48,135 bases of DNA from an uncultured Streptomyces sp. (lineage in GTDB: Bacteria > Pseudomonadota > Gammaproteobacteria > Burkholderiales > SG8-41), in assembly GCA_964510405.1 (NCBI GenBank), contig CAZEAX010000001.1:1-48135 (forward strand), in the 5' to 3' direction. Under the pieces are notes generated by a model. The model ran no database searches and was not told where the DNA came from. It worked only from the letters and a program-made list of their open reading frames with translations. Positions 19,600-47,662 of the stretch are shown one piece after another (position 1 is the first letter of the stretch; the number at the start of each line of letters is the position of its first letter). The position numbers and the translations under genes were made by a program.

Positions 19600-20559
19600 T
19601 TACTCGGCCTGGATATTGGCGGCTTTCACCACTTCGGCCCATTTTTTGAGTTCGGAATCGAGGACCTTTTTGAATTCGCCGGGCGTAGACGGAATGGCTT
19701 CAAGCGAAAGCGCGGCGAGCCGTTCCCGCACCTGCGGTTGGTTGACCGCCTTCACAATCTCGCGGTTGAGCATCGCGATGATCGCCTGCGGCACGCCGGC
19801 CGGCGCCAGCACGCCGTTCCAGTTTTCGCCTTCGACGCCTTTGACGCCGGCTTCGGCCATGGTCGGTACATCGGGTATCGCCGCGGAGCGTTTTTTTCCG
19901 GCAATCGCGAGTCCGCGCAGGCGTCCGGATTGAATATGCGGCACAGCGGCGGGCATGGTGCTGATCGCGGATTGCACCTGGCCGGCGACCGTGTCCGCGA
20001 CGGCGGGGCCGGTGCCCTTGTAAGGCACGGGATTTAGCTTGATGCCGGCGCGCAATTGAAAAAGCTCGCCGACCACGTGCGTCGTCGCGCCGACGCCGCC
20101 GTGGCCGAGCGTGATTTTGCCCGGCTGAGCTTTGGCGAGCGCGATGAATTCCGCGAGGTTCACAGCCGGCACCGACGGATGCATGACGAGAATCGCCGGC
20201 GAAGTCGCGACCATGGATACCGGCACGAAATCCCTGGCGAGATCGTAGCCGACATTCTTGCTGACCGCGGGATTGATCGTGACCGGCAGGTCCGTGAACA
20301 GCAGCGTGTAGCCGTCGGGCTGTGCGTGCGCGGCGAGCTGGGTGCCGAGCATGCTCGCGGCGCCCGGCCGCGTGTCGATGACGATGGTGGTGCCGAGGTA
20401 TTCACCGAGCTTCTGGCCGAGGATGCGCGCGGAGATTTCGGAGCCGCCGCCCGGCGCCCACGGTACTATCATGCGGATCGGGCGATTTGGGTAGTCGCTG
20501 GCGAGTGCTGCACCCGCGGTCAACGCGCAGGCGATCGATATGGTTCGGCAAATTTTCAT
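19600..20559 (-). CDS. TctC/Bug-family substrate-binding protein
   Basis: Signal peptide, then SDYPNRPIRMIVPWAPGGGSE, PDGYTLLF and PVPYKGTGPAV. Its start overlaps the upstream stop (ATGA at 20556..20559). Confidence 0.9.
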   Translation of the reverse strand: MKICRTISIACALTAGAALASDYPNRPIRMIVPWAPGGGSEISARILGQKLGEYLGTTIVIDTRPGAASMLGTQLAAHAQPDGYTLLFTDLPVTINPAVSKNVGYDLARDFVPVSMVATSPAILVMHPSVPAVNLAEFIALAKAQPGKITLGHGGVGATTHVVGELFQLRAGIKLNPVPYKGTGPAVADTVAGQVQSAISTMPAAVPHIQSGRLRGLAIAGKKRSAAIPDVPTMAEAGVKGVEGENWNGVLAPAGVPQAIIAMLNREIVKAVNQPQVRERLAALSLEAIPSTPGEFKKVLDSELKKWAEVVKAANIQAE

Positions 20560-22781: not shown

Positions 22782-23738
22782 TTAATTCAGTTTGATGTCG
22801 GCGGCTTTGACGACTTTGGCCCAGCGTTCGTAGTCTTCGCGGATGAACTGGCCGAGCTCGTCGGGCGACATCGGTGCGGGAATGAGGCCCTGCGCCATCA
22901 ATTTTTCGCGCACGTCGGGCGAGTTCAGCGCTTTGACTGCGTCGGCGTTGAGGCGTGCGACGAGTTCTTTCGGCGTGCCGGCGGGCGCCATCAGCGGATA
23001 CCAGTTGAGCACGTCGAAGCCGGGCAGCCCGGATTCGTCCACGGTCGGCACGCTCGCCAGCGGCGGATAACGCTTCCTGCCGGACACGCCGAGGACTTTG
23101 AGCCGGCCCGCCTGCAATTGCGGCAGCACCGAGGGATCGGAGAACGTGAGGTCCGCGTGGCCGCCCATGATGTCGGCGATCGCGGGCGCCGTGCCTTTGT
23201 ACGGAATGTGAATCATGTGGATGCCGGCCATCACGTTGAAGAGTTCGCCGGCGAGATGCTGGCCGGTGCCGGCGCCGCCGGACGCCATGTTGAGTTTGCC
23301 GGGATTGGCTTTCGCGAGCTTGATCAGCTCGGCGGCGTTTTTCGCGGGCACCGAAGGATGCGCGACGATGATGTACGGCATGGTCACGAGCATCGTGATC
23401 GGCGCGAGATCCTTGAGCGGGTTGTAGCCGAGCTTCGGAAACAGCAGCGGCGCGACCGCGACCGAGCCCGGTCCCGCGACGAGCAGCGTGTAGCCGTCGG
23501 GCGCGGACTTTGCGACGTGTTCGGCGCCGATGGTGCCGGCCGCGCCCGCGCGGTTGTCGATCACGACCTGCTGGCCCAGATATTCGGTGAGTTTCTGGCC
23601 GACCGTGCGCGCGGTGAGATCGACGCCGCCGCCGGCGGGAAACGGCACCACGATGCGCACGGGTTTGTTCGGATAACCCTGCGCGCCGGCCGCCAGGGCG
23701 TACGCGATGCTCAGTGCCGCGATGAGGAGTTTCGTCAT
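22782..23738 (-). CDS. TctC/Bug-family substrate-binding protein
   Basis: Internal ATG 23738. Signal peptide MTKLLIAALSIAYALAAGAQGYPNKPVRIVVPFPAGGGVD, then DNRAGAAGTIGAEHVAKSAPDGYTLLV and HIPYKGTAPAI. Confidence 0.9.
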   Translation of the reverse strand: MTKLLIAALSIAYALAAGAQGYPNKPVRIVVPFPAGGGVDLTARTVGQKLTEYLGQQVVIDNRAGAAGTIGAEHVAKSAPDGYTLLVAGPGSVAVAPLLFPKLGYNPLKDLAPITMLVTMPYIIVAHPSVPAKNAAELIKLAKANPGKLNMASGGAGTGQHLAGELFNVMAGIHMIHIPYKGTAPAIADIMGGHADLTFSDPSVLPQLQAGRLKVLGVSGRKRYPPLASVPTVDESGLPGFDVLNWYPLMAPAGTPKELVARLNADAVKALNSPDVREKLMAQGLIPAPMSPDELGQFIREDYERWAKVVKAADIKLN

Positions 23739-23760
23739 GGTGAATGAATAATACCTCACG

Positions 23761-24954
23761 CTACGTGTGCTCCTTCTGCAGAAAGAAATCGCCCGACAGC
23801 TCGGTGCCGAGGCCCATGCGGCGCGCATTTCCGAGTATCCGGGCGCCGGCAGCGGCGAACTGCATGCCGCAGCCGTTGTTGTTCAGGTGGTGCGTGATTT
23901 CGTCCGCGCTATTGCGTCCTGTCGCGCGCCCGTTCAGGAGGTCTCCCAGCTCGACATAGGAGTCCCAGTCGAATTCCTGCGCCTTCTGGTTGATCAGTTG
24001 GCCGAAGGTCGCGCCGCGTTTTTTTTCACCCATCACGAAATTCTGCACGAAATCGCTGGTGTCGCCGAACGGCTTCAGGCTGACCACGATCTGGCGGCTC
24101 GATTTGAACGTGCGCACATCGTCTTCCAGCAGCGTGCCGATGCCCAGGTGCATGCCGGGCAGAAGCCACTCGGCGTCGTATACGGGCTCGTACGAACTCG
24201 TCGCGGCAAGCACGATGTCGGCGTTCTCGAACGCGCGTTGTGCGGAATCGACTGCGATGACCTCGACGCCGATGCGCTCGCTCATCGTGCGCGCAAACCG
24301 TTCGCGGTTTGCCTGCGTAGGACTGTAGATGCGCACGCGCCTCAACTTCATGATCGCGGCCGTGCATTCGAGCGCGGCTTCGGCCTGTGCACCGCTGCCG
24401 AGCACGCCGACCGTTTCGGACTCCGGGCGCGCAAGCAGTTTCACGCCGAGTGCCGTGGTACCGCCGACGCGCATTTTCTGGATGTGCGAATCGGGCAGCA
24501 TGCCGAGCACTTCGCCGGTCTCGAGCGACAGCAGCACGATCATGCTCATGAACTGCCAGCCGGGCGCCAGCGGCAGCTTCACGCGGCGCAATACGCCGGC
24601 GATTTCGGGTTGCGTATCGAAGTGCGTCGAGATGCGCACCGCCATCATGCCGCACGCGGGCAATCCGCCGGTCACGGTTTTCAGGCGATAGACGACGTCG
24701 CCCGCTTTCTTGGCGGCCTCTATCGTCGGCGCGGCGTAGACGGGATCGGCGTCCAGCGGCAGCGCGTCGATGCGCGCCGCCGTCGCGCGCTTGATGTCCG
24801 GCGTGTAGCCGTCGAACGGCACGCACGTGTCGACGCGCAGCGAATTGACGGCGCGGCCGGCGCCGAGTTCGCGAAACGCCTGCTCCATCGTTTCGACGTA
24901 TTCGTCCGCGCGCATGGCGGCGGCGACTTCGCGGTTGTCGAGCAGAAGAGGCAT
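23761..24954 (-). CDS. ornithine cyclodeaminase/mu-crystallin family protein (long form)
   Basis: Internal ATG 24954. The Rossmann segment is VGVLGSGAQAEAALE, with an OCD-like N-terminus (MPLLLDNREVAAAM). It is about 397 aa, longer than typical family members. Confidence 0.8.
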   Translation of the reverse strand: MPLLLDNREVAAAMRADEYVETMEQAFRELGAGRAVNSLRVDTCVPFDGYTPDIKRATAARIDALPLDADPVYAAPTIEAAKKAGDVVYRLKTVTGGLPACGMMAVRISTHFDTQPEIAGVLRRVKLPLAPGWQFMSMIVLLSLETGEVLGMLPDSHIQKMRVGGTTALGVKLLARPESETVGVLGSGAQAEAALECTAAIMKLRRVRIYSPTQANRERFARTMSERIGVEVIAVDSAQRAFENADIVLAATSSYEPVYDAEWLLPGMHLGIGTLLEDDVRTFKSSRQIVVSLKPFGDTSDFVQNFVMGEKKRGATFGQLINQKAQEFDWDSYVELGDLLNGRATGRNSADEITHHLNNNGCGMQFAAAGARILGNARRMGLGTELSGDFFLQKEHT

Positions 24955-27301: not shown

Positions 27302-27366
27302 AGCGCGACAGTTTGCTTGATTTAGAATAGGCTGTCTTGCGCAGTTTTTCGTGTGAGTATCGAGAA

Positions 27367-28185
27367 ATGGACAAACCTTCCGCGCACTGCCCGGGCACCG
27401 CCCGGATGGCCGCGCCCGAAAGCCCGGTGCAGGGCGACCTTGCGCGCGCGGTCGTCACGCGGCGCACCACGTACGCCAACGGCCATTGCATCAAGCCGCA
27501 CTGGCACGCGCGCGCCCAGTTCATATTTGCGGTCGCCGGCACGATGCGCGTGCGCACGGCGCGGCGCGTGTGGATAGTCCCGCCGACGCGTGCACTGTGG
27601 GTGCCCGCGCGCACCGTGCACGAAGTGCAGATGTACGGCGTCGTGCAAATGCGCAGTCTCTATGTCGACGACGTCTGCGGCGCCGGCATGCCGTCCTCGT
27701 GCGCCGTGCTGAACGTGACGCCTCTGCTCAAGGAACTCATCGTGCGCGCCGTCGCGCTGCCGGCGGGCTACGACGAGCACGGCGACGACGGGCTGCTGAT
27801 GCAATTGCTGATGGCCGAAGTGCGGCGCCTGCCGCACTGCGCACTCGATCTGCCGCTGCCGGAGAGCGCCGATCTCACGCGATTGTGCGAGCGGTTGCTC
27901 GACGACCTGTCCGCGCGGCGGCCGTGCGATCTCGACGCGCTCGATTTGAAGACCAGCACGCGCACGCTCTACCGGCGCTTCCTGCGGGAAACCGGCATCA
28001 CATTTGCGCGCTGGAAGCACCAGGCGCGCCTGCTTGAATCGATCCGCCGTCTCGCCGAGGGCGTGCCGGTCACGACGGTTGCGCTCGATCTCGGCTATGC
28101 CAGCCCGAGCGCGTTTTCGTCGATGTTCCGGCGCGCGGTCGGGACGCCGCCGCGCATATTTACTACGGCGGGCAGCAGCGGTTAG
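27367..28185 (+). CDS. AraC-family transcriptional regulator (cupin sensor plus HTH)
   Basis: The N-terminal cupin-like region is HWHARAQFIFAVAGTMRV. The C-terminal AraC HTH is TLYRRFLRETGITFARWKHQARL...LDLGYASPSAFSSMFRRAVGTPP. The gene is divergent from the MFS gene. An alternative TTG start lies at 27337. Confidence 0.87.
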   Translation: MDKPSAHCPGTARMAAPESPVQGDLARAVVTRRTTYANGHCIKPHWHARAQFIFAVAGTMRVRTARRVWIVPPTRALWVPARTVHEVQMYGVVQMRSLYVDDVCGAGMPSSCAVLNVTPLLKELIVRAVALPAGYDEHGDDGLLMQLLMAEVRRLPHCALDLPLPESADLTRLCERLLDDLSARRPCDLDALDLKTSTRTLYRRFLRETGITFARWKHQARLLESIRRLAEGVPVTTVALDLGYASPSAFSSMFRRAVGTPPRIFTTAGSSG

Positions 28186-28340: not shown

Positions 28341-28886
28341 ATGACTAAATTTGGATTTCGCACGCTGGCAGTCGTGGCGCTCGCAGCGCTGGCATTTTCC
28401 ACCGCGGCCGCCGAGCTTCCGCCCTTGCCCGCGGGACTTACCGCGGTGACCAAGCCCGTTCACCTGCCCGCATTCACGCTCGCGACGCCCGCCGGCGGCA
28501 AAGTGCACGCGGATGAATTCAAGGGCAAGGTGCTGATCGCCCGCTTCTGGGCCACCTGGTGAGACATCTGCGTAGGTGAAATGCCCTCCGTGCAGAGGGC
28601 ACATGATGAATACAAGAAGAGCGGCGTGCCGGTGATCGCGATTTCGATCGACGGCGACGGCGAAAAATCGGTCAAGCCTTTCCTGGCCGAGCACAAGTAC
28701 ACTTTGCCAACGCCGCTCGATCCCGACATGGCGGTGGCGCGCGCCGTCGGCGTGCGGGTAACGCCGTGGACCGTGATCGTCGACCGCAGCGGCGCGGTGG
28801 TGGCCGGTGGTTACGGCAAGATCGACATGCAGAGCGCGGAATTCCGCAATTACGTGAAGGCGCTTGCCGCAAGGCCGCCGGGATAA
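28341..28886 (+). CDS. exported TlpA/ResA-like thioredoxin-fold thiol:disulfide oxidoreductase with in-frame TGA (predicted selenocysteine) at 28560..28562, active site W-U-D-I-C
   Basis: ORFs 28224..28562 and 28581..28886 are in the same frame and separated only by one TGA. Read-through gives FKGKVLIARFWATW[TGA]DICVGEMPSVQ...VIAISIDG...TPWTVIVDRSG, matching the TlpA/ResA pattern FWATWCxxCxxEMP. GGAG lies 5 nt before ATG 28341, followed by signal peptide MTKFGFRTLAVVALAALAFSTAAA. Confidence 0.8.
28565..28608 (+). promoter_or_regulatory. candidate bacterial SECIS stem-loop downstream of TGA 28560
   Basis: The upper stem pairs TGCCCTC (28582..28588) with GAGGGCA (28595..28601), with loop CGTGCA containing G and U. 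The lower stem pairs CATC (28565..28568) with GATG (28605..28608). The apical loop lies about 27-32 nt after the UGA. Confidence 0.5.
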
Positions 28887-28933
28887 CGACACCGTCGATT
28901 TTTTTTCGCAGCACCACAACAAGGGAGGCTCGC

Positions 28934-29500
28934 ATGAAGTCGAAACGATGGAGAAATCTGTGGCTGGGAATGTTGTTCGCCGGATCGGCCCTCGCGGGCG
29001 GTGCCGCGCATGCAATAGATGTCGGCGCGAAAGCGCCGGACTTCGCGCTGATGTCCTCGACCGGCAAGGAAATCAAGCTCGCCGATTTCGCCGGCAAGAA
29101 GGCGGCGGTGCTCTTTTTCTACATAGGCGCGTTCACCAACACTTGAACGCAGGAAGCGCTGGCCTTCCAACTTGATCTTCCCAAGTTCGAGGCCGCGAAT
29201 GCCCAGGTCCTGGGCATCAGTGTCGACTTCAACGACGCTAACAAGGCATGGGGCGAGAAACTCGGCCTCAAGTATCCGCTGCTGTCCGATCTGCGCCGCG
29301 AGATGTCACGCGCTTACGGCGTGCTGAACGACGACGCGACCGCGGCAGGCGACACCAAGCGTATCGCGACGTATCTGCGCTCCAAACGCGCGTGGTTCAT
29401 CGTCGACAAGAACGGCGTCGTGGTCTACGCGCGGGTCACGGATCCGCGCGGGCTCGTGCCCAACGACGAGATGCTGGAAGTGCTCGAGAAATTGAAATAG
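28934..29500 (+). CDS. exported BCP/peroxiredoxin-like protein with in-frame TGA (predicted selenocysteine) at 29144..29146 in the peroxidatic position
   Basis: ORFs 28766..29146 and 29303..29500 are in the same frame (difference 537 nt), with no other stop between them. Read-through gives KAAVLFFYIGAFTNT[TGA]TQEALAFQ...VLGISVDFNDANKAWGEKLGLKYPLLSD...AWFIVDKNGVV, the AhpC/TSA-BCP pattern FFYPxxFTxxCTxE. AAGGGAGG lies 5 nt before ATG 28934, followed by signal peptide MKSKRWRNLWLGMLFAGSALAGGAAHA. Confidence 0.8.
29152..29187 (+). promoter_or_regulatory. candidate SECIS region downstream of TGA 29144 (two alternative small hairpins)
   Basis: Hairpin A pairs GGAAG (29152..29156) with CTTCC (29164..29168), with loop CGCTGGC. 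Hairpin B pairs AACTTG (29169..29174) with CAAGTT (29182..29187), with loop ATCTTCC. Which of them, if either, is functional cannot be decided by eye. Confidence 0.35.
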
Positions 29501-29533: not shown

Positions 29534-29612
29534 ATCGCGCGTTCGCAATCTTGCCGGCATCGAGCCGCGGTAGCAGGCTCGATGCCGTTTCAGTTTGGAC
29601 GACGCTTACGCC

Positions 29613-30584
29613 ATGAGTTATCGCAATGCTTCCCGCTGGCTGCTCGCGGCGCTGCTCGTATCGGTTCAATCGGCGCATCCGGCGGAAAATTTCCCCGCGA
29701 AGACCGTGCGGTTGATTGTGCCTTTTGCGGCGGGCGGCGGCGGCGACGGCGCGGCGCGTCCGCTTGCCCAGGCGTTGTCCGCGCGGCTCGCGCAGCAGGT
29801 GGTCATCGATAACCGCGGCGGCGCAGGCGGAATCATCGGCATCGAGACCGCGGCGAACGCGGCGCCCGACGGCTATACGCTGTTGCTCTCCACCGCGGGT
29901 TTTGCCGCGCTGCCCGCGCTGCATCGTACGCTGCCTTTCGACCCTGTGCGCGATTTCACCGGTGTCATCGTCGCGCAATCCGGCATTTACATACTCGTCG
30001 TAAATCCGGCGGGCAATATCACGTCGGTGAACGGCTTGATTTCGTACGCGAAGGCGAATCCGCGCAAGCTTGATTTTGCATCGGCGGGCATCGGTTCGAC
30101 GATCCATCTCGCAGGCGAGCTCTTCAAAAGCATGGCGCAGATCGACATGGTCCACGTGCCGTACAAGGGCGCCGGACCCGCGATTACCGACGTAATCGGC
30201 GGACAGGTGCAGACGATGTTCGCATCCGCTCTGAACGCACTGCCGCTGGTCAAATCGGGAAAGTTGCGCGCGCTGGCGGTGACTTCGGCGCAGCGTTCCG
30301 CACTCGTTCCGGAGTTGCCGACTGTGGCGGAAAGCGGCATGCCGGGCTTTGAAGCGACGGGTTGGTACGGGCTTGCCGCACCGGCGCGCACGCCGAAGCC
30401 GATCGTGCGCAAACTCAATGCGGATGCGAACAGCGCGCTGCGTTCGCCTGAGCTTGTTGATTTGCTAAAAGCGCAGGGGCTTGAACCCGTCGGCGGAACG
30501 CCGGAAGCCGCGACTGAACTCATCCGCAAGGACGTGGAGCGCTGGACGCGATTGATCCGCGATGCCGGCATCAAACAGCAATAG
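29613..30584 (+). CDS. TctC/Bug-family substrate-binding protein
   Basis: ATG 29613 (alternative TTG at 29595). Signal peptide, then AENFPAKTVRLIVPFAAGGGGD, DNRGGAGGIIG, PDGYTLLL and HVPYKGAGPAI. Confidence 0.9.
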   Translation: MSYRNASRWLLAALLVSVQSAHPAENFPAKTVRLIVPFAAGGGGDGAARPLAQALSARLAQQVVIDNRGGAGGIIGIETAANAAPDGYTLLLSTAGFAALPALHRTLPFDPVRDFTGVIVAQSGIYILVVNPAGNITSVNGLISYAKANPRKLDFASAGIGSTIHLAGELFKSMAQIDMVHVPYKGAGPAITDVIGGQVQTMFASALNALPLVKSGKLRALAVTSAQRSALVPELPTVAESGMPGFEATGWYGLAAPARTPKPIVRKLNADANSALRSPELVDLLKAQGLEPVGGTPEAATELIRKDVERWTRLIRDAGIKQQ

Positions 30585-32682: not shown

Positions 32683-33797
32683 CTAATTGAGCTGTATTCC
32701 CGTCGCCTTCACCAGCGTGTTGAGCCTTTCGTAATCCGCTTTGATGTTCGCCGCAAGCTGCTCCGGCGTGCCCGGTGTCGCGATCAAGCCCTGAGCCAGC
32801 AGCTTTGATTTCGCTTCGGGCTGCGCGAGAGCTCGCGCGATTTCCGCATTGAGACGCGCAATGACTTCGCGCGGCGTGCCCGCGGGTGCGAAGAGCGCGT
32901 ACCACGTGATCGAGACGAATCCCGGCAGCCCCGATTCGGCGATCGTCGGCACGTTCGGCAAAGGTTCGTAGCGCGTCGTACCCGAAACACCCAGGGCTTT
33001 CAACCTTCCGGAAATAATTTGCGGCAACACCGCGGCGTCGAGAAATCCCTGATTGGCGTGGCCGCCGATCAGGTCGGTGATCGCCGGCGCGGTGCCTTTG
33101 TACGGCACATGCGTCATGCGCGTGCCGGCGAGCAGGTTGAATTCTTCTTCCGCGATATGCTGGCCGCCGCCGGCGCCGCCCGATACTACATTGAGCCGGC
33201 CCGGGTGCGCTTTCGCGAGCGCGATCAGCTCACGCGCATTACGCGCCGGCACCGCCGGATGCGCAGAGAGAATATAAGGCGCCGTCACGAGGTTGCCGAC
33301 CGCAGCGATGTCGCGCGTTGGCACGTAGGGCAGATTGGGATTCGTCAGCGCCGCGGCGACGAGCGGGCCGCGTCCGCTCACGAGCAGCGTGTAACCGTCG
33401 GGCGCCGACTTCGCGACGTGATCGGTGCCGATACGCCGTTGCAGGGCGGAGCAGGGGACCCCTTCAGGGGATGCGACCCCGGAAACGTGCGCCGCGGACG
33501 CGTTTAATTCCACGGCGTCGTCTTCCGACTCGCGGACGTTCACATCCCGCAAGCGGGAGCCCTGTTCACTGCTCGCGTCCGGCCGCCCGCACCGGGGCGG
33601 TTATCGACGATCGCCGACACGTTCAAAGACGGCGCAAGCTGTTGTGCGATCGCGTGGCCGGTAATGTCGACACCGCCGCCGGCGGGATAGGGAACGACGA
33701 TGCGGACGGGTTTGGACGGATAAGCTTGCGCGTATAACGGCGACCCGTTCAGCACCAACGCAGCGCACACCAGCGGGCGGGCGTGACGCATCATCAT
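32683..33797 (-). pseudogene. TctC/Bug-family substrate-binding protein gene disrupted by a ~149-nt insertion
   Basis: The N-terminal piece (33797..33582) reads MMMRHARPLVCAALVLNGSPLYAQAYPSKPVRIVVPYPAGGGVD...VDNRPGAGG. The C-terminal piece (33432..32683) reads IGTDHVAKSAPDGYTLLV...HVPYKGTAPAI... The two pieces are in different frames, and a stop lies inside the intervening sequence. Confidence 0.8.
33433..33581. repeat. structured ~149-nt insertion interrupting the TctC gene (REP/MITE-like, identity unknown)
   Basis: The boundaries are inferred from where TctC homology stops and resumes. Nested hairpin: GGGG (33454..33457) pairs with CCCC (33477..33480), enclosing CCCC-ttca-GGGG. A second hairpin is TCCCGC-aa-GCGGGA (33545..33558). 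The inverted 8-mers are CGGACGCG (33495..33502) and CGCGTCCG (33574..33581). Confidence 0.45.
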
Positions 33798-40766: not shown

Positions 40767-41726
40767 TCAGTCCATGGTCACGTTCGCCGTCTTCGCGACG
40801 CGAAACCACTTCTCCGACTCGGCGGCGTAGTAAGCGGCGAATTGCTCCGGCGTATTCCCCACGGCGACGCCGCCGAGTTCGAGCACTCTTTCCCGCAGCG
40901 CAGGAGTCTTCAGCGCTTTGGCGAGTTCGTCGCTGACGTGGCGCCGCTGTTCGAGCGGCACGCCGGCCGGCATCGAAATGCCCTGCCATGAACTCGCGTC
41001 GTAACCTTTCAATCCCGATTCGGCTACGGTCGGCACCTTCGGCAAAACGGGAAAGCGGTCCTTCGTCGAGACGGCGATCGCGCGCAGCCGGCCTTCTTTC
41101 ACGAAAGGCATGACGCCGACCGCGGGCGCGAACGCAACTTCGACGCGGCCCGCGAGATGATCGACCATCTGCGCGCCGGCGCCCTTGTAGGTGATCAGCG
41201 CGACGTCGACGCCCGCCTGCTGTTTCAGGAGCTCCATTGCGAGATGCGGGCTCGCGCCGCCGCCGCTCGATGCGTAGTTGAGCGCGCCGGGCCGGCGTTT
41301 GGCGAGCGCGATCAATTCGCCGAGGTTTTTTACCGGCAGCGCAGGATGCACAAGCAGCAGCATCGGCACGGTGGCGACCAGCGTCACGTGCGAGAAATCC
41401 TTCAGCGAATCGTAGCCGGCGTTGTTCGACAGGCGCGATGCGATCGTTTGCGCCGGCGCCACCATGCACATCGTGTAGCCGTCGGGCGGCGCTTTGGTGC
41501 ACAGCGCGGTCCCGATGTTGCCGCTCGCACCCGGGCGGTTGTCGGCGATCACGTTGACGCCCCACGCGTCGGTCAGCGCTTTCGCGACGATGCGGCCCAG
41601 CGTGTCGGTCGCGCCGCCGGGCGGGTAGGAGAGGATGAAGCGAACAGGTTTTGCCGGATAACTCTGTGCATGCGCGGCGGCCGTAAAAGTTGACGCAATC
41701 AGACAGCTAATGAAGAAGTGCTTCAT
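40767..41726 (-). CDS. TctC/Bug-family substrate-binding protein
   Basis: Signal peptide, then AQSYPAKPVRFILSYPPGGATD, DNRPGASGNIG, PDGYTMCM and TYKGAGAQM. Confidence 0.9.
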   Translation of the reverse strand: MKHFFISCLIASTFTAAAHAQSYPAKPVRFILSYPPGGATDTLGRIVAKALTDAWGVNVIADNRPGASGNIGTALCTKAPPDGYTMCMVAPAQTIASRLSNNAGYDSLKDFSHVTLVATVPMLLLVHPALPVKNLGELIALAKRRPGALNYASSGGGASPHLAMELLKQQAGVDVALITYKGAGAQMVDHLAGRVEVAFAPAVGVMPFVKEGRLRAIAVSTKDRFPVLPKVPTVAESGLKGYDASSWQGISMPAGVPLEQRRHVSDELAKALKTPALRERVLELGGVAVGNTPEQFAAYYAAESEKWFRVAKTANVTMD

Positions 41727-41732
41727 CGGTGA

Positions 41733-42719
41733 TTACGGCAGCTCGACGAACGTGCCGCGCCCCGTGCGTTCGGCTTCGCGCAGCGCGTAGGCGGAGAAAG
41801 CGACGTCGCCGGTTGCGATGCCCTGCACGATCGCGAGCACGCGATCGGATGCGGCGAGGCGGCCGGGCTTTTTGCCCGCGACCACATCGCAGGTCAGGGC
41901 GTCGATCCGCGCGGCAAAAGTTGCGCGCGACAAATGGCCCTGCGCGATCCACGCGCCGCCGTCGCCGACCTCGGAGGCGAAATCGGGATCGTCGACGACC
42001 AGCCGTTCGCATTCCTGGAAAACGCCGAATTCGAGTTCGTTGCCGCCGCCCATCGAGCACACGACGGCGCCGCGCTTGACTGAGCCGGCGGCGACGAATG
42101 GTTCGCGCGCGGCGGTGACGGTGATGACGACGTCGGCGCCGTCGATCGCGCGCGCGGCGGCAGGCTCCTCGCGCACCGGGAACGCAACGCGCGGTGCGTG
42201 TGCGGACACGAAAGCGCTCACGCTTTCGCCGCGCCGCGAATAGACGCGCAGTTCGCGGATTGCCAGCGCCGAGGCGAGCATCGGCACCAGCTCGTGCGCG
42301 ATCTTGCCCGTGCCGCAGAGCGCGACGGCGAGCGGCCCCGGATTGACGAGCGCTTCGAGCGTTGCCGTGCCGAAGGCGGCGGTGCGAATGCGGCTGATCC
42401 ACAGTTCCGGCACGAGTCCCGACAGCGCGAGGCTCTCGTGTTGGTAAACGGCGGTGTAGTTGAAAGCGTCGGGATCGGTCGCCGAGCGCCGCGAGATCAG
42501 GCGAATTCCCGACGCGCCGAGATGGCCGACGGTTGCCGCCTTGAATTTGAAACGGCCGGCGCCAAAGCGCGTCGCGTCGAGCGCCATCGACGACGGAGCC
42601 GACAGCTCGCTGGCGCCGGCCGCCTGATCGCGCAAGGTTGCGCGCGCAAGGTCGAGCGCACGCGCGCTGTCGATCGCGGCGCGTACATCATGTTCGCTCA
42701 ATATGCGGATGCCGGGCAT
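41733..42719 (-). CDS. ornithine cyclodeaminase/mu-crystallin family protein
   Basis: 328 aa. The N-terminus MPGIRILSEHDVRAAID is OCD-like. The Rossmann segment is VALCGTGKIAHELV. Confidence 0.85.
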   Translation of the reverse strand: MPGIRILSEHDVRAAIDSARALDLARATLRDQAAGASELSAPSSMALDATRFGAGRFKFKAATVGHLGASGIRLISRRSATDPDAFNYTAVYQHESLALSGLVPELWISRIRTAAFGTATLEALVNPGPLAVALCGTGKIAHELVPMLASALAIRELRVYSRRGESVSAFVSAHAPRVAFPVREEPAAARAIDGADVVITVTAAREPFVAAGSVKRGAVVCSMGGGNELEFGVFQECERLVVDDPDFASEVGDGGAWIAQGHLSRATFAARIDALTCDVVAGKKPGRLAASDRVLAIVQGIATGDVAFSAYALREAERTGRGTFVELP

Positions 42720-42886
42720 GCGGCGTGATTATCACATCATCGAGGCCGCGAATGAAGATTGCACGTTTCGGTGCATGCTTTGCACGCTGCCGGTGCGCGC
42801 GAATGCATTGCCGCGCATGCGTGCTTGTGCGATCATCGATCACGCTTCAACTCGTTCAATTCCACTTCGGCGCCCGCACTGTCCCC

Positions 42887-43849
42887 ATGATTCGCTGTTG
42901 TTCCGCTTTGCTGGTTTGCGCGTCGCTCTCCGCTTCATTCGCCCACGCGCAAAACTATCCGGCCAAGCCGGTGCGCATACTCATGGGTTTCCCCGCGGGC
43001 AGCACCGTCGACGTGCTGGTGCGGCCGCTCGCGCAGCGCCTGACCGAAACGTTCGGCCAGCAATTCATCGTCGACAACCGCGCGGGCGCGACCGGCGTGA
43101 TCGCTTCCGAACTGGTGGCCAGGGCCGCGCCCGACGGCTATACGCTGCTCGGCACGCCGAGCTCCGCGATCACCAGCACGCCGCATCTGAATCGCATGCC
43201 CTTCGATCCGCTGCGCGATTTCGTGAGCGTCGCCCAGATCAACTGGTTTTCTTACGTATTGATCACCCACCCGTCGGTGCCCGCCAATAACGTGGCCGAG
43301 CTCATCGCGCTCGCAAAGGCGAAGCCCGGCGTGCTGACCTACGGTTCATCGGGCATCGGCAGCGCGTTTCATCTGGCGGGCGAGCTGTTCCGCCTGATGG
43401 CGAAGATCGACATCGTGCATGTGCCGTACAAGGGCGGTCCGCCCGCGGTCACCGACATGATGGGCGGACGACTCGATCTCATGTTTTATTCGCTCGCCGT
43501 CGTGCGCCAGCAGATCGACGCGGGCCGGCTGCGCGCGCTTGCCGTGACCGGCGATCGGCGTGATCCGTTGCTGCCCAATGTGCCGACGGTCGCCGAGTCC
43601 GGATTGCGCGGCTACGAAATGAGCGGCGGCCACGTGATACTCGCGCCGGCCGCAACGCCGCGCGATACGCTCGTCAAACTCAACGCGGCGATACTCAAAG
43701 CGCTGGCGACGCCGGAGATGAAGGAACTGTGGGCGCGGCAGGGCATGGAGATTTACCTGACGACGCTCGACCAGGCGGCGGCGCGCCTGCGCGGCGATTA
43801 CGAGCGCTATGGCAAGCTCATCAAAGATGCGGGCATCAAGGCTGAATAA
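42887..43849 (+). CDS. TctC/Bug-family substrate-binding protein
   Basis: Internal ATG 42887. Signal peptide, then AQNYPAKPVRILMGFPAGSTVD, DNRAGATGVIA, PDGYTLLG and HVPYKGGPPAV. Confidence 0.9.
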   Translation: MIRCCSALLVCASLSASFAHAQNYPAKPVRILMGFPAGSTVDVLVRPLAQRLTETFGQQFIVDNRAGATGVIASELVARAAPDGYTLLGTPSSAITSTPHLNRMPFDPLRDFVSVAQINWFSYVLITHPSVPANNVAELIALAKAKPGVLTYGSSGIGSAFHLAGELFRLMAKIDIVHVPYKGGPPAVTDMMGGRLDLMFYSLAVVRQQIDAGRLRALAVTGDRRDPLLPNVPTVAESGLRGYEMSGGHVILAPAATPRDTLVKLNAAILKALATPEMKELWARQGMEIYLTTLDQAAARLRGDYERYGKLIKDAGIKAE

Positions 43850-46524: not shown

Positions 46525-47538
46525 TCATTGCTCCCGAATATCCGCCGCTTTCGCGACCTTCGACCATTTCCGGGTCTCGGCGCGGATGAAGGCGGCATAT
46601 TCTTCCGGCGTGTCGCCGCCGGGCTCGTGGCCCTGGCCGATGAACATTTGCTGGTTCTCGGGCGTGGCGAGCTGCTTCGACAGGATTTCATGAATGCGCG
46701 CGGTGATGGCTTTCGGCGTCGCGGCGGGCGCCAGCACGCCGTTCCAGTTGTAGCTTTCGAAGCCGGGCATGCCCTGCTCGGCAATGGTCGGCAGATCGGG
46801 CAGAAGCGGCGTGCGCTTTTGCGACGTCGCGCCGAGCGCGCGCAATTTGCCCTGCTGCAGGAGCGGCGCGCAGCCGGCGAACTGGATGACGGCAAGCTCG
46901 ATGTGGCCGGCGATAAGATCGATCGTATAGAGCGCGGCGCCTTTGTACGGGATGTGATTGAGCTTCACGCCCGCCTGCGACGCGAACAATTCGGTCGCGA
47001 GATGGCCGACGGTGCCGACGCCGGGCGAGCCGTAGTTGATTTTTCCCGGGCGCGCCCTGGCGAACGCGATGAAATCCTTGACGCCTTTGACCGGCAGGCT
47101 CGGATGGATGCCGATGCAGCTGGCACTGCGCGCGATCAGCATGATGGGCGCCAGGTCGCGCAATGTGTCGTACGGCATTTGCGCGCGCACCGCCGCCGCG
47201 ATGGTCAGCGGCCCCGGGTTGCCGGCGAGCAGCGTGTAGCCGTCGGGCGCGGCCTTCACCACCATTTCGGTGCCGGGCACGCCGCCCGCGCCGCCGCGAT
47301 TGTCGATGATGAACGCCTGGCCGAGCGCCGCATTCAATTGCTGCCCGGCCCAGCGCGCCTGAATATCGGTGGGGCCACCCGGGGCGAACGGCACGATCAC
47401 GCGCACGGGCTTCGTGGGATACGTTTGCGCGAGCGCGTGCGCTGCGCAAATGCACAACGCGGCGAGCACGGACCAGCGGCAGATTGGAACTATCACGGAC
47501 TTCCTCCAGTGCGCGGATGCGGCGCGAACGGTCCGCAT
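46525..47538 (-). CDS. TctC/Bug-family substrate-binding protein
   Basis: AQTYPTKPVRVIVPFAPGGPTD, DNRGGAGGVPG, PDGYTLLA and HIPYKGAALYT. The start is uncertain; ATG 47538 gives a long signal region, and the ORF extends to 47580. Confidence 0.85.
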   Translation of the reverse strand: MRTVRAASAHWRKSVIVPICRWSVLAALCICAAHALAQTYPTKPVRVIVPFAPGGPTDIQARWAGQQLNAALGQAFIIDNRGGAGGVPGTEMVVKAAPDGYTLLAGNPGPLTIAAAVRAQMPYDTLRDLAPIMLIARSASCIGIHPSLPVKGVKDFIAFARARPGKINYGSPGVGTVGHLATELFASQAGVKLNHIPYKGAALYTIDLIAGHIELAVIQFAGCAPLLQQGKLRALGATSQKRTPLLPDLPTIAEQGMPGFESYNWNGVLAPAATPKAITARIHEILSKQLATPENQQMFIGQGHEPGGDTPEEYAAFIRAETRKWSKVAKAADIREQ

Positions 47539-47662
47539 GCGCACCTGGCGAAGATAGTGGAGTCGCGTGCGTGCTGTCAATCAATCCCTGCGCGCACTCT
47601 GGTAAACTTGCGGCTCGAAAATCGAGCCGTACGTCAAATTACCCATCCCGGAGAAGAGAGTC

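Follow-up and report, generated by a model that had tools for sequence, protein, structure and literature searches.

Does the in-frame TGA at positions 29144-29146 of this contig interrupt a dead or split gene, or does it encode selenocysteine (Sec) at the active site of an exported peroxiredoxin? The question arose from a sequence-only reading of the 48,135-nucleotide stretch analysed here (the window), which had placed the codon at the peroxidatic cysteine (Cys) of an exported BCP/peroxiredoxin-like protein and had predicted a mature product with no Cys at all. Here, comparison with related genomes, Cys-containing homologues and proteins of known structure indicates that positions 28341-29500 are likely to be a two-gene selenoprotein operon, in which the second gene would encode an exported Sec-peroxiredoxin that is reduced by the Sec-containing, TlpA-like product of the first. 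That the peroxiredoxin gene is a true selenoprotein gene is, on these comparisons, highly probable; our confidence is lower for the relay mechanism and for the composite selenocysteine insertion sequence (SECIS) proposed below.

The peroxiredoxin gene and its in-frame TGA

Translation of the frame from 28934 to 29500 revealed a single internal stop, the TGA at 29144-29146. The fragments 28766..29146 and 29303..29500 share this frame, and the sequence-only reading was right to join them into one product: the 188-codon frame holds no other stop, and the read-through sequence is exactly the one it had given, with KKAAVLFFYIGAFTNT-[TGA]-TQEALAFQLDLPKFEAANAQVLGISVDF around the codon and AFTNT-U-TQEALAFQLDLPK as the active-site peptide. 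The gene and its parts are as follows.

28934..29500, + strand: predicted Sec-peroxiredoxin gene, 188 codons, with a BCP-like AhpC/TSA domain; ATG at 28934, terminal TAG at 29498-29500
28921..28928, + strand: Shine-Dalgarno-like AAGGGAGG, 5 nucleotides (nt) before the ATG; GGAG-type motifs stand at the same place in most orthologues
28934..29014, + strand: predicted signal peptide MKSKRWRNLWLGMLFAGSALAGGAAHA (27 residues), with a charged start, a hydrophobic core and an AxA end; predicted cleavage after AHA
29144..29146, + strand: predicted Sec codon TGA (codon 71) at the peroxidatic position, I-x-x-x-T-x-x-U; TGA in 42 of 42 sequences, aligned with Cys in homologues

Profile scores, computed with Cys substituted for U, assigned the product to the AhpC/TSA fold: it reached 119.3 bits against Pfam AhpC-TSA (PF00578; cut-off 26; residues 30-165) and 85 bits against Redoxin, and its best PDB matches were BCP-type peroxiredoxins (3hjp, E = 4e-25; 2ywn/4g2e, E = 2e-24). 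The BCP/peroxiredoxin-like fold initially suggested is thereby borne out, with the qualification that the NCBIfam cut-off for BCP was not reached (NF006960, 63.7 bits vs 140), nor were those for PrxQ (NF053650, 57.3 bits vs 260) and PrxU (NF040737, 54.6 bits vs 270); the clade as a whole lies below every curated NCBIfam selenoprotein or peroxiredoxin cut-off. In the alignments, the TGA falls on the peroxidatic Cys of the PDB structures 2ywn and 2cx3 (AFTQVCTKE in 2ywn against AFTNT-U-TQE here) as well as on that of four Cys homologues described below, in agreement with the position first ascribed to it, and the Arg of KRAWF aligns with the catalytic Arg of AKRAVF in the PDB BCPs.

A scan of one genome per species (GTDB) yielded 41 close matches with 59-85% identity, all of them from uncultured metagenome-assembled genomes (MAGs) of Betaproteobacteria/Burkholderiales and Candidatus Entotheonellaceae; together with the window sequence, these make up 42 peroxiredoxin orthologues. 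The peroxidatic codon is TGA in 41 of the 41 related genomes, with the protein sequence kept on both sides. The active-site Thr at -3 is present in all 42 orthologues and the catalytic Arg in 40 of them. Cys is missing from the whole 188-residue product and from the mature part of each of the 42 orthologues, which extends the earlier prediction from one protein to the clade. Likewise, export gains support from the orthologues, 41 of which (of 42) begin with a signal-peptide-like leader; these calls are sequence-based and were made without a dedicated predictor, and they suggest that the peroxiredoxin is exported. One column of the active site sets the Sec forms apart. The Pro of the PxxxTxxC motif, which has been termed 'absolutely conserved' (PMC3322552) and which known Sec-peroxiredoxins keep as PxxxTxxU (PMC13188914), does not occur in any of the 42, where the column holds Ile (29 sequences, the window among them), Val (12) or Thr (1).

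Other Sec forms were encountered as well. Divergent ones on two JGI metagenome contigs (L087:45-617 and L088:361-1101) read AAFG[Q/R]A-U and miss both the Pro and the Thr, and a Dehalococcoidaceae MAG (L069:10163) carries a classical AhpC-type Sec-peroxiredoxin, FYPADFTCV-U-PTE, in which the canonical Pro is retained.

Substitution patterns point to translation across the TGA. Between the window and ten divergent relatives, the ratio of non-synonymous to synonymous substitution rates (dN/dS) was 0.16-0.41 upstream of the TGA and 0.08-0.37 downstream of it, beyond the RNA structures, at a dS of about 0.8-1.5; the low downstream ratio indicates that the part after the TGA is translated in this frame. 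In the window, no in-frame ATG, GTG or TTG was found between 29147 and 29302, and since the first start codon stands only at 29303, 52 codons after the TGA, the conserved codons before it can be reached only by reading through the TGA. Two outcomes that the sequence-only reading had named as fatal to its claim, namely that only the 70-residue N-terminal fragment is made or that orthologues lack conservation downstream of the TGA, are both contradicted by these values.

About 19 of the 43 likely genes in the window end in TGA, which thus keeps its ordinary role as a stop; a reassigned genetic code was ruled out on this ground. Throughout the 48 kb, coding-like composition on both sides was observed for only two TGA codons, that at 29144 and that at 28560 in the neighbouring gene, and the scan of the window found no further in-frame TGA with such a two-sided signal. 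Among the 42 loci, the peroxiredoxin genes end in TAG (27), TAA (11) or, in only four cases, TGA, the commonest stop among the ORFs (open reading frames) of the window. A scan for promoters and terminators gave nothing above chance. Comparative marks of a selenoprotein (PMC13188914), namely a UGA aligned with Cys in homologues and UGA-containing orthologues conserved on both sides, are present at this locus.

The upstream TlpA-like gene and the RNA structures behind the two TGA codons

The other TGA with a two-sided coding signal lies in the gene immediately upstream of the peroxiredoxin, within the motif FWATW-[TGA]-DIC. The claim first made for the peroxiredoxin had mentioned neither this second candidate selenoprotein nor the loss of the Pro nor the two hairpins described below.

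28341..28886, + strand: TlpA/ResA-like gene with the predicted active site W-U-D-I-C; thioredoxin-fold, putatively exported product, proposed reductant of the peroxiredoxin
28560..28562, + strand: predicted Sec codon TGA of the TlpA-like gene, within its UxxC motif; all 39 sequences have TGA, the Cys-type locus L081 has TGC
28582..28601, + strand: predicted SECIS hairpin U-GCCCUC-[CGUGCA]-GAGGGC-A of the TlpA-like gene, of the canonical bacterial type, with 26 nt from UGA to loop

Its product scored 78 bits against Pfam AhpC-TSA, 77 bits against Redoxin and 36 bits against Thioredoxin_8, with 3kcm, ResA and TlpA as the best PDB matches. The NCBIfam cut-offs for ResA (85 bits vs 170) and TlpA (64 bits vs 230) were not reached, and the curated WAxxUGC model of NCBIfam likewise excludes it (53 bits vs 300). 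The protein has a hydrophobic N-terminal leader, and its single Cys is that of the U-x-x-C motif.

The two genes travel together. A TlpA-like gene with a TGA lies 554-624 nt upstream of the peroxiredoxin TGA in 38 of the 38 loci having upstream sequence, the intergenic gap being 20-75 nt in most of them and a Shine-Dalgarno-like motif preceding the second gene in most. All-against-all clustering of the ORFs of the 42 loci identified the two selenoprotein genes as the only conserved unit, with surroundings that vary by genome; a conserved third gene (DsbD, ScsB, CcdA or sel genes) was sought in these loci and none was found, the other shared clusters consisting only of the multi-copy TctC family and other large multi-copy groups. 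The TlpA-like genes end in TAA (21), TGA (9) or TAG (9).

The bacterial SECIS consensus (PMC13188914) describes a loop of 3-9 nt on a stem of 4-16 bp, with a G among the first two loop nucleotides; the loop stands 16-37 nt behind the UGA, and the minimum free energy is <= -7.5 kcal/mol. The 7-bp hairpin of the TlpA-like gene agrees with all four of the published criteria (PMC13188914) and is essentially invariant, with 98% of cells paired; in L023, L024 and L032 a CG-to-UA double change, which also alters an amino acid, preserves it. The peroxiredoxin UGA is followed by two hairpins instead of one.

29161..29194, + strand: hairpin 1, GGCCUU..AACUUG-[AUCUUCC]-CAAGUU.GAGGCC, starting 14 nt after the TGA; proposed structured spacer or non-canonical SECIS
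29199..29217, + strand: hairpin 2, AUGCCCAG-[GUC]-CUGGGCAU; proposed SelB-binding apex

Both hairpins were found by RNAalifold and by independent pair counts, which gave 92.9% of cells paired, compared with 22-51% in slid controls. In hairpin 1, compensatory changes affect three pairs, 14 cells in all, with double changes at pair 21-48 (CG to UA, six sequences), pair 30-40 (UA to GC/CG, six) and pair 18-51 (one). Hairpin 2 is 100% paired in 34 distinct sequences and shows one UA-to-CG double change. In addition, synonymous variation is about halved over roughly 25 codons after the TGA, dS being 0.06-0.59 just after the codon vs 0.8-1.5 further downstream. Three Cys homologues keep the peptide FQLDLPKFEAANAQVLG while both helices weaken, from -14.9 kcal/mol in the Sec form to -10.5, +0.8 and -7.1 kcal/mol for hairpin 1 and from -10.3 to -6.6, -0.6 and -7.3 kcal/mol for hairpin 2; because the peptide is kept, this weakening ties both helices to the TGA state. 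The divergent Sec forms L087 and L088 keep both helices.

Which of the two hairpins would recruit SelB is suggested by comparison with the neighbouring gene. The motif ATGCCC-N7-10-GGGCA is common to hairpin 2 and the TlpA-like SECIS and occurs at only these two places in the 48 kb, against 0.18 expected. Furthermore, when the 34 nt of hairpin 1 are discounted, the UGA and the loop of hairpin 2 are separated by 14 + 6 nt and a 6-nt stem arm, in sum 26 nt, exactly the distance found in the TlpA-like SECIS. The common motif and the effective spacing both favour hairpin 2 as the SelB-binding element, and the two hairpins probably form a composite signal in which hairpin 1 serves as a structured spacer. 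The rival assignment is that hairpin 1 is itself a non-canonical SECIS. A third TGA-carrying gene occurs in one Burkholderiales MAG, a putatively exported AhpC/TSA-like ORF (L012:5968-6498, + strand; TGA at L012:6163; LLEFYGADFAPT-U-AANLL) about 1.1 kb downstream of the operon, which has a canonical SECIS-like hairpin with the loop AGGAA 18 nt after its TGA; this ordinary SECIS suggests that the SelB of these lineages obeys the usual G rule.

In the window, an AraC regulator gene lies directly upstream of the operon (27337-28185), and the 48 kb hold at least nine genes for TctC/'Bug' periplasmic receptors, two hydantoinase A/B pairs, MFS transporters and a PrpD-like gene; examples of the gene coordinates from this survey are 19600-20559, 22782-23828, 29595-30584, 32683-33552, 40767-41726, 42638-43849 and 46525-47580. 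This gene content is typical of Burkholderiales.

Cysteine homologues, the proposed relay and its rivals

Cys-containing counterparts of the peroxiredoxin do exist. Four proteins with about 60% identity (P0016, P0024, P0025 and P0029) read FFYPGAFTNACTQEAL with Cys in the TGA column, and in all four the Pro of PxxxTxxC is present. At the level of DNA, the loci L081, L082 and L083 have TGC at the peroxidatic codon, and Cys is the only non-TGA state seen there. The sole Cys-type operon seen whole, L081 (SRR31724235), carries Cys in both genes (FWASW-C-SIC and FFYPGAFTNA-C), and no operon that mixes Sec and Cys was seen. A neighbour-joining tree, computed without bootstrap, places the Cys forms within the Sec clade beside L033 and L036, a position that suggests reversion from Sec to Cys with the Pro regained. 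Such a reversion would account, too, for the hairpins left over in the Cys genes. The Cys-type TlpA gene of L081 (L081:2150-2260) has a 7-bp hairpin, UGGACGC-[CGUGCAAC]-GCGUCCA, at the exact SECIS columns of the Sec forms, with a stem that is entirely different from the SECIS of the Sec forms and fully compensated; it may be a relic of a recent Sec-to-Cys reversion.

Taken together, we infer a scheme that covers Sec insertion, export, peroxidase activity, the partnership of the two proteins with its chemistry, and the roles of the hairpins. Sec would be inserted at both UGA codons, at 29144 by SelB and Sec-tRNA(Sec) under the direction of the RNA structure in the following 75 nt, where the G-U loop of hairpin 2 would bind SelB and the covarying 34-nt hairpin 1 would fold away to leave an effective distance of 26 nt. 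The selenolate of the peroxiredoxin would attack the peroxide and become a selenenic acid; as the mature enzyme has no Cys, only the mechanism of a '1-Sec' peroxidase would be open to it. The exposed nucleophile of CxxC proteins is the residue at the N-terminal position. Since the peroxiredoxin has no resolving residue, we propose that the Sec of the TlpA-like partner attacks the oxidised peroxiredoxin and forms an intermolecular Se-Se bond, which would be replaced by an internal Se-S bond through the partner's single Cys, and that a DsbD/ScsB/CcdA-type membrane transporter encoded elsewhere would reduce the latter. The presence of Sec in both partners, and of Cys in both partners of L081, fits a need for matched chemistry.

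Several observations weigh against this scheme or parts of it. Neither the window nor some 0.8 Mb of related loci yielded any selA, selB, selC or selD; tblastn with E. coli SelD and SelA, two probes that in a validation matched the E. coli genes at 98.8% and 100% identity, gave no match to the window or related loci, and no tRNA, tRNA-Sec included, was found in the window or the 41 loci. A DsbD, ScsB or CcdA gene is not conserved near the operon in the 42 loci, and the divergent locus L088 has an amidohydrolase-like gene upstream and no TlpA-like gene. With regard to the RNA, hairpin 1, whose loop AUCUUCC begins 28 nt behind the UGA, has no G in that loop and so fails the G rule; hairpin 2 stands 60 nt from the UGA, outside the 16-37 nt of the spacing rule; and Rfam matched no family at gathering thresholds anywhere in the window, with nothing but noise in 28500-29300 when E values up to 10 were admitted. 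Finally, the 'absolutely conserved' Pro is missing from all Sec forms, and peroxidase chemistry is not guaranteed; the additional lack of the Thr in L087 and L088 adds to this doubt.

This last doubt gives weight to a reading in which the protein is a Sec-containing redox protein of peroxiredoxin fold that is no peroxidase and that acts, with the TlpA-like selenoprotein, on another periplasmic substrate such as protein sulfenic acids or disulfides, methionine sulfoxide, or a metal or metalloid. The exchange of the Pro for Ile, Val or Thr, the AAFG[Q/R]A-U motif of the divergent forms and the NCBIfam scores far under the BCP, PrxQ and PrxU cut-offs speak in its favour, as does Caulobacter PrxL, which is reduced by the same pathway as the peroxiredoxin PprX and had no detectable peroxidase activity (PMC3322552). 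Nevertheless, we regard it as improbable: the main clade keeps the Thr without exception and the catalytic Arg in all but two members, the best full-length relatives of known structure are true BCP peroxidases (E = 4e-25), and the Sec would sit exactly at the peroxidatic position.

Considerably less probable still is that the UGA is read without Sec, by near-cognate or suppressor decoding as Trp, Cys or Arg, with hairpins that merely stimulate read-through or pausing. This would accommodate both the missing Sec machinery in the window and related loci and the failure of either peroxiredoxin hairpin, taken alone, to fit the bacterial SECIS consensus. It does not sit well with two TGA codons placed exactly at the redox Cys position of homologues, with a TlpA-like hairpin that fully fits that consensus, with the canonical SECIS of the third TGA gene in L012, or with a codon that reverts to Cys and to nothing else. 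Moreover, there are reports of Sec decoding from the lineages concerned: it is frequent in Betaproteobacteria (PMC1794560), and a full Sec machinery together with Sec-ligated P450s has been reported for Entotheonella genomes (PMC11703216). Burkholderia, Caballeronia and Cupriavidus replicons were found to carry SelA and SelD genes, which lends indirect support. As for a pseudogene, a sequencing error or a gene in two pieces (an N-terminal fragment of 70 residues, alone or beside a C-terminal one made by re-initiation), the gene callers of the databases do give only a 113-residue C-terminal fragment, named 'redoxin domain-containing protein'. Against this stand the same TGA in 41 independent assemblies from two phyla, the strong purifying selection on both halves, the 52 conserved codons after the TGA for which the window offers no start codon, and the loss of the fold that a break just before the catalytic residue would entail. 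This explanation is effectively refuted by the conserved TGA and the selection around it; together with the lack of re-initiation and the normal use of TGA as a stop, these leave no room for a pseudogene or a split gene, for an assembly error or for a variant code.

Hence, we retain the two-gene selenoprotein operon with an exported Sec-peroxiredoxin as the likely interpretation. The fuller picture is a tentative one, and on balance doubtful in its entirety: a periplasmic peroxide relay that runs on selenium at both steps, with an Se-Se bond between the peroxidase and its dedicated reductase; an active site that lost the Pro for Sec and regained it with Cys; and a previously undescribed composite SECIS with hairpin 1 as a foldable spacer.

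Relation to known systems and meaning for selenium use

Sec-peroxiredoxins of the TxxU type have been a known family since 2001 (PMC13188914, PMC1794560), and peroxiredoxin-like, redoxin and TlpA-like UxxC selenoproteins are established alongside them (PMC1794560, PMC2398784, PMC5029168, PMC13188914); since both families are established, the basic claim made here is not new in kind. The prototype of the former, PrxU of Eubacterium/Peptoclostridium acidaminophilum (PF00578; NF040737), resembles the protein described here in the AhpC/TSA fold, in the UGA at the peroxidatic position, in the Thr three residues before U, in the existence of Cys homologues and in a stem-loop within the coding region after the UGA. 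In contrast to PrxU, the present protein is BCP-like and not AhpC/Prx1-like, begins with a predicted signal peptide, has no Cys, replaces the Pro by Ile, Val or Thr, is invariably accompanied in the main clade by a gene of the Sec-TlpA-like kind, and occurs in Betaproteobacteria. The upstream product is, like the known UxxC selenoproteins (peroxiredoxin-like thiol:disulfide oxidoreductases, the Redoxin family and thiol-disulfide isomerase-like proteins; PF00578, PF08534, cd02966; surveys by Zhang and Gladyshev), a TlpA/ResA-like U-x-x-C redoxin; it differs from them in that its gene is fixed in an operon with a Sec-peroxiredoxin.

The closest functional parallel comes from Caulobacter crescentus, where a pathway from ScsB (or DsbD) to TlpA and on to the periplasmic PrxQ-type peroxiredoxin PprX was shown experimentally (Cho et al. 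2012, PMC3322552). The same study points to PprX homologues in Bordetella and Burkholderia, for which DsbD would be the donor. The relay proposed here would likewise have an exported PrxQ/BCP-type peroxiredoxin that receives its electrons from an exported TlpA-type protein. The Caulobacter pair works with Cys in both proteins, PprX carrying a resolving Cys besides a complete PxxxTxxC motif; in the present operon, Sec is predicted in both partners, the peroxiredoxin has no resolving residue, and the genes are adjacent. The 1-Cys BCPs (Sulfolobus solfataricus Bcp4, PDB 3hjp; 2ywn/4g2e), compared here by sequence, have in common with our protein the active-site helix, the catalytic Arg and the PLLSD-type strand, but they come from archaea, are located in the cytoplasm and have both Cys and the canonical Pro. 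When set beside the consensus bacterial SECIS (bSECISearch; E. coli fdhF type), the TlpA-like hairpin conforms in every respect, while hairpin 2 shares the small G-U loop on a GC-rich stem and departs from it in lying 60 nt from the UGA behind a conserved 34-nt hairpin with a G-less loop.

As of 2006, no selenoprotein other than FdhA was on record for Betaproteobacteria (PMC1794560). The selenoprotein operons listed in a 2026 review include no pair of a peroxiredoxin and a TlpA-like gene, and the Global Ocean Sampling (GOS) survey mentions just one Prx/Prx-like 2 read. What distinguishes the present variant is the predicted export, the lack of Cys, the lack of the canonical Pro, the proposed dedicated Sec-containing reductase and the unusual two-hairpin signal.

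In public databases, both genes of the operon are present only as truncated fragments; the peroxiredoxin clade stands there as 113-residue fragments or as products with Trp at the TGA, the reading that JGI gave for L087 and L088. More than 80 clusters (P0035-P0120) of 112-116 residues, named 'redoxin domain-containing protein' or 'peroxiredoxin', are C-terminal fragments of the Sec-peroxiredoxin whose called start codon stands just after the TGA, a systematic annotation error. Because of this fragment annotation, a clade of soil and freshwater Betaproteobacteria and Entotheonellaceae is scored as being without two selenoproteins that it most likely has. For the prediction of SECIS elements, the locus offers a concrete case that current bacterial search rules would miss. 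It also provides a natural experiment on Sec versus Cys, the Pro being found never in the Sec forms and always in the Cys revertants, and a selenoprotein pair whose chemistry may require Se-Se exchange. For the Betaproteobacteria, long thought to use Sec only in formate dehydrogenase, the operon would add antioxidant defence of the cell envelope to the uses of selenium.

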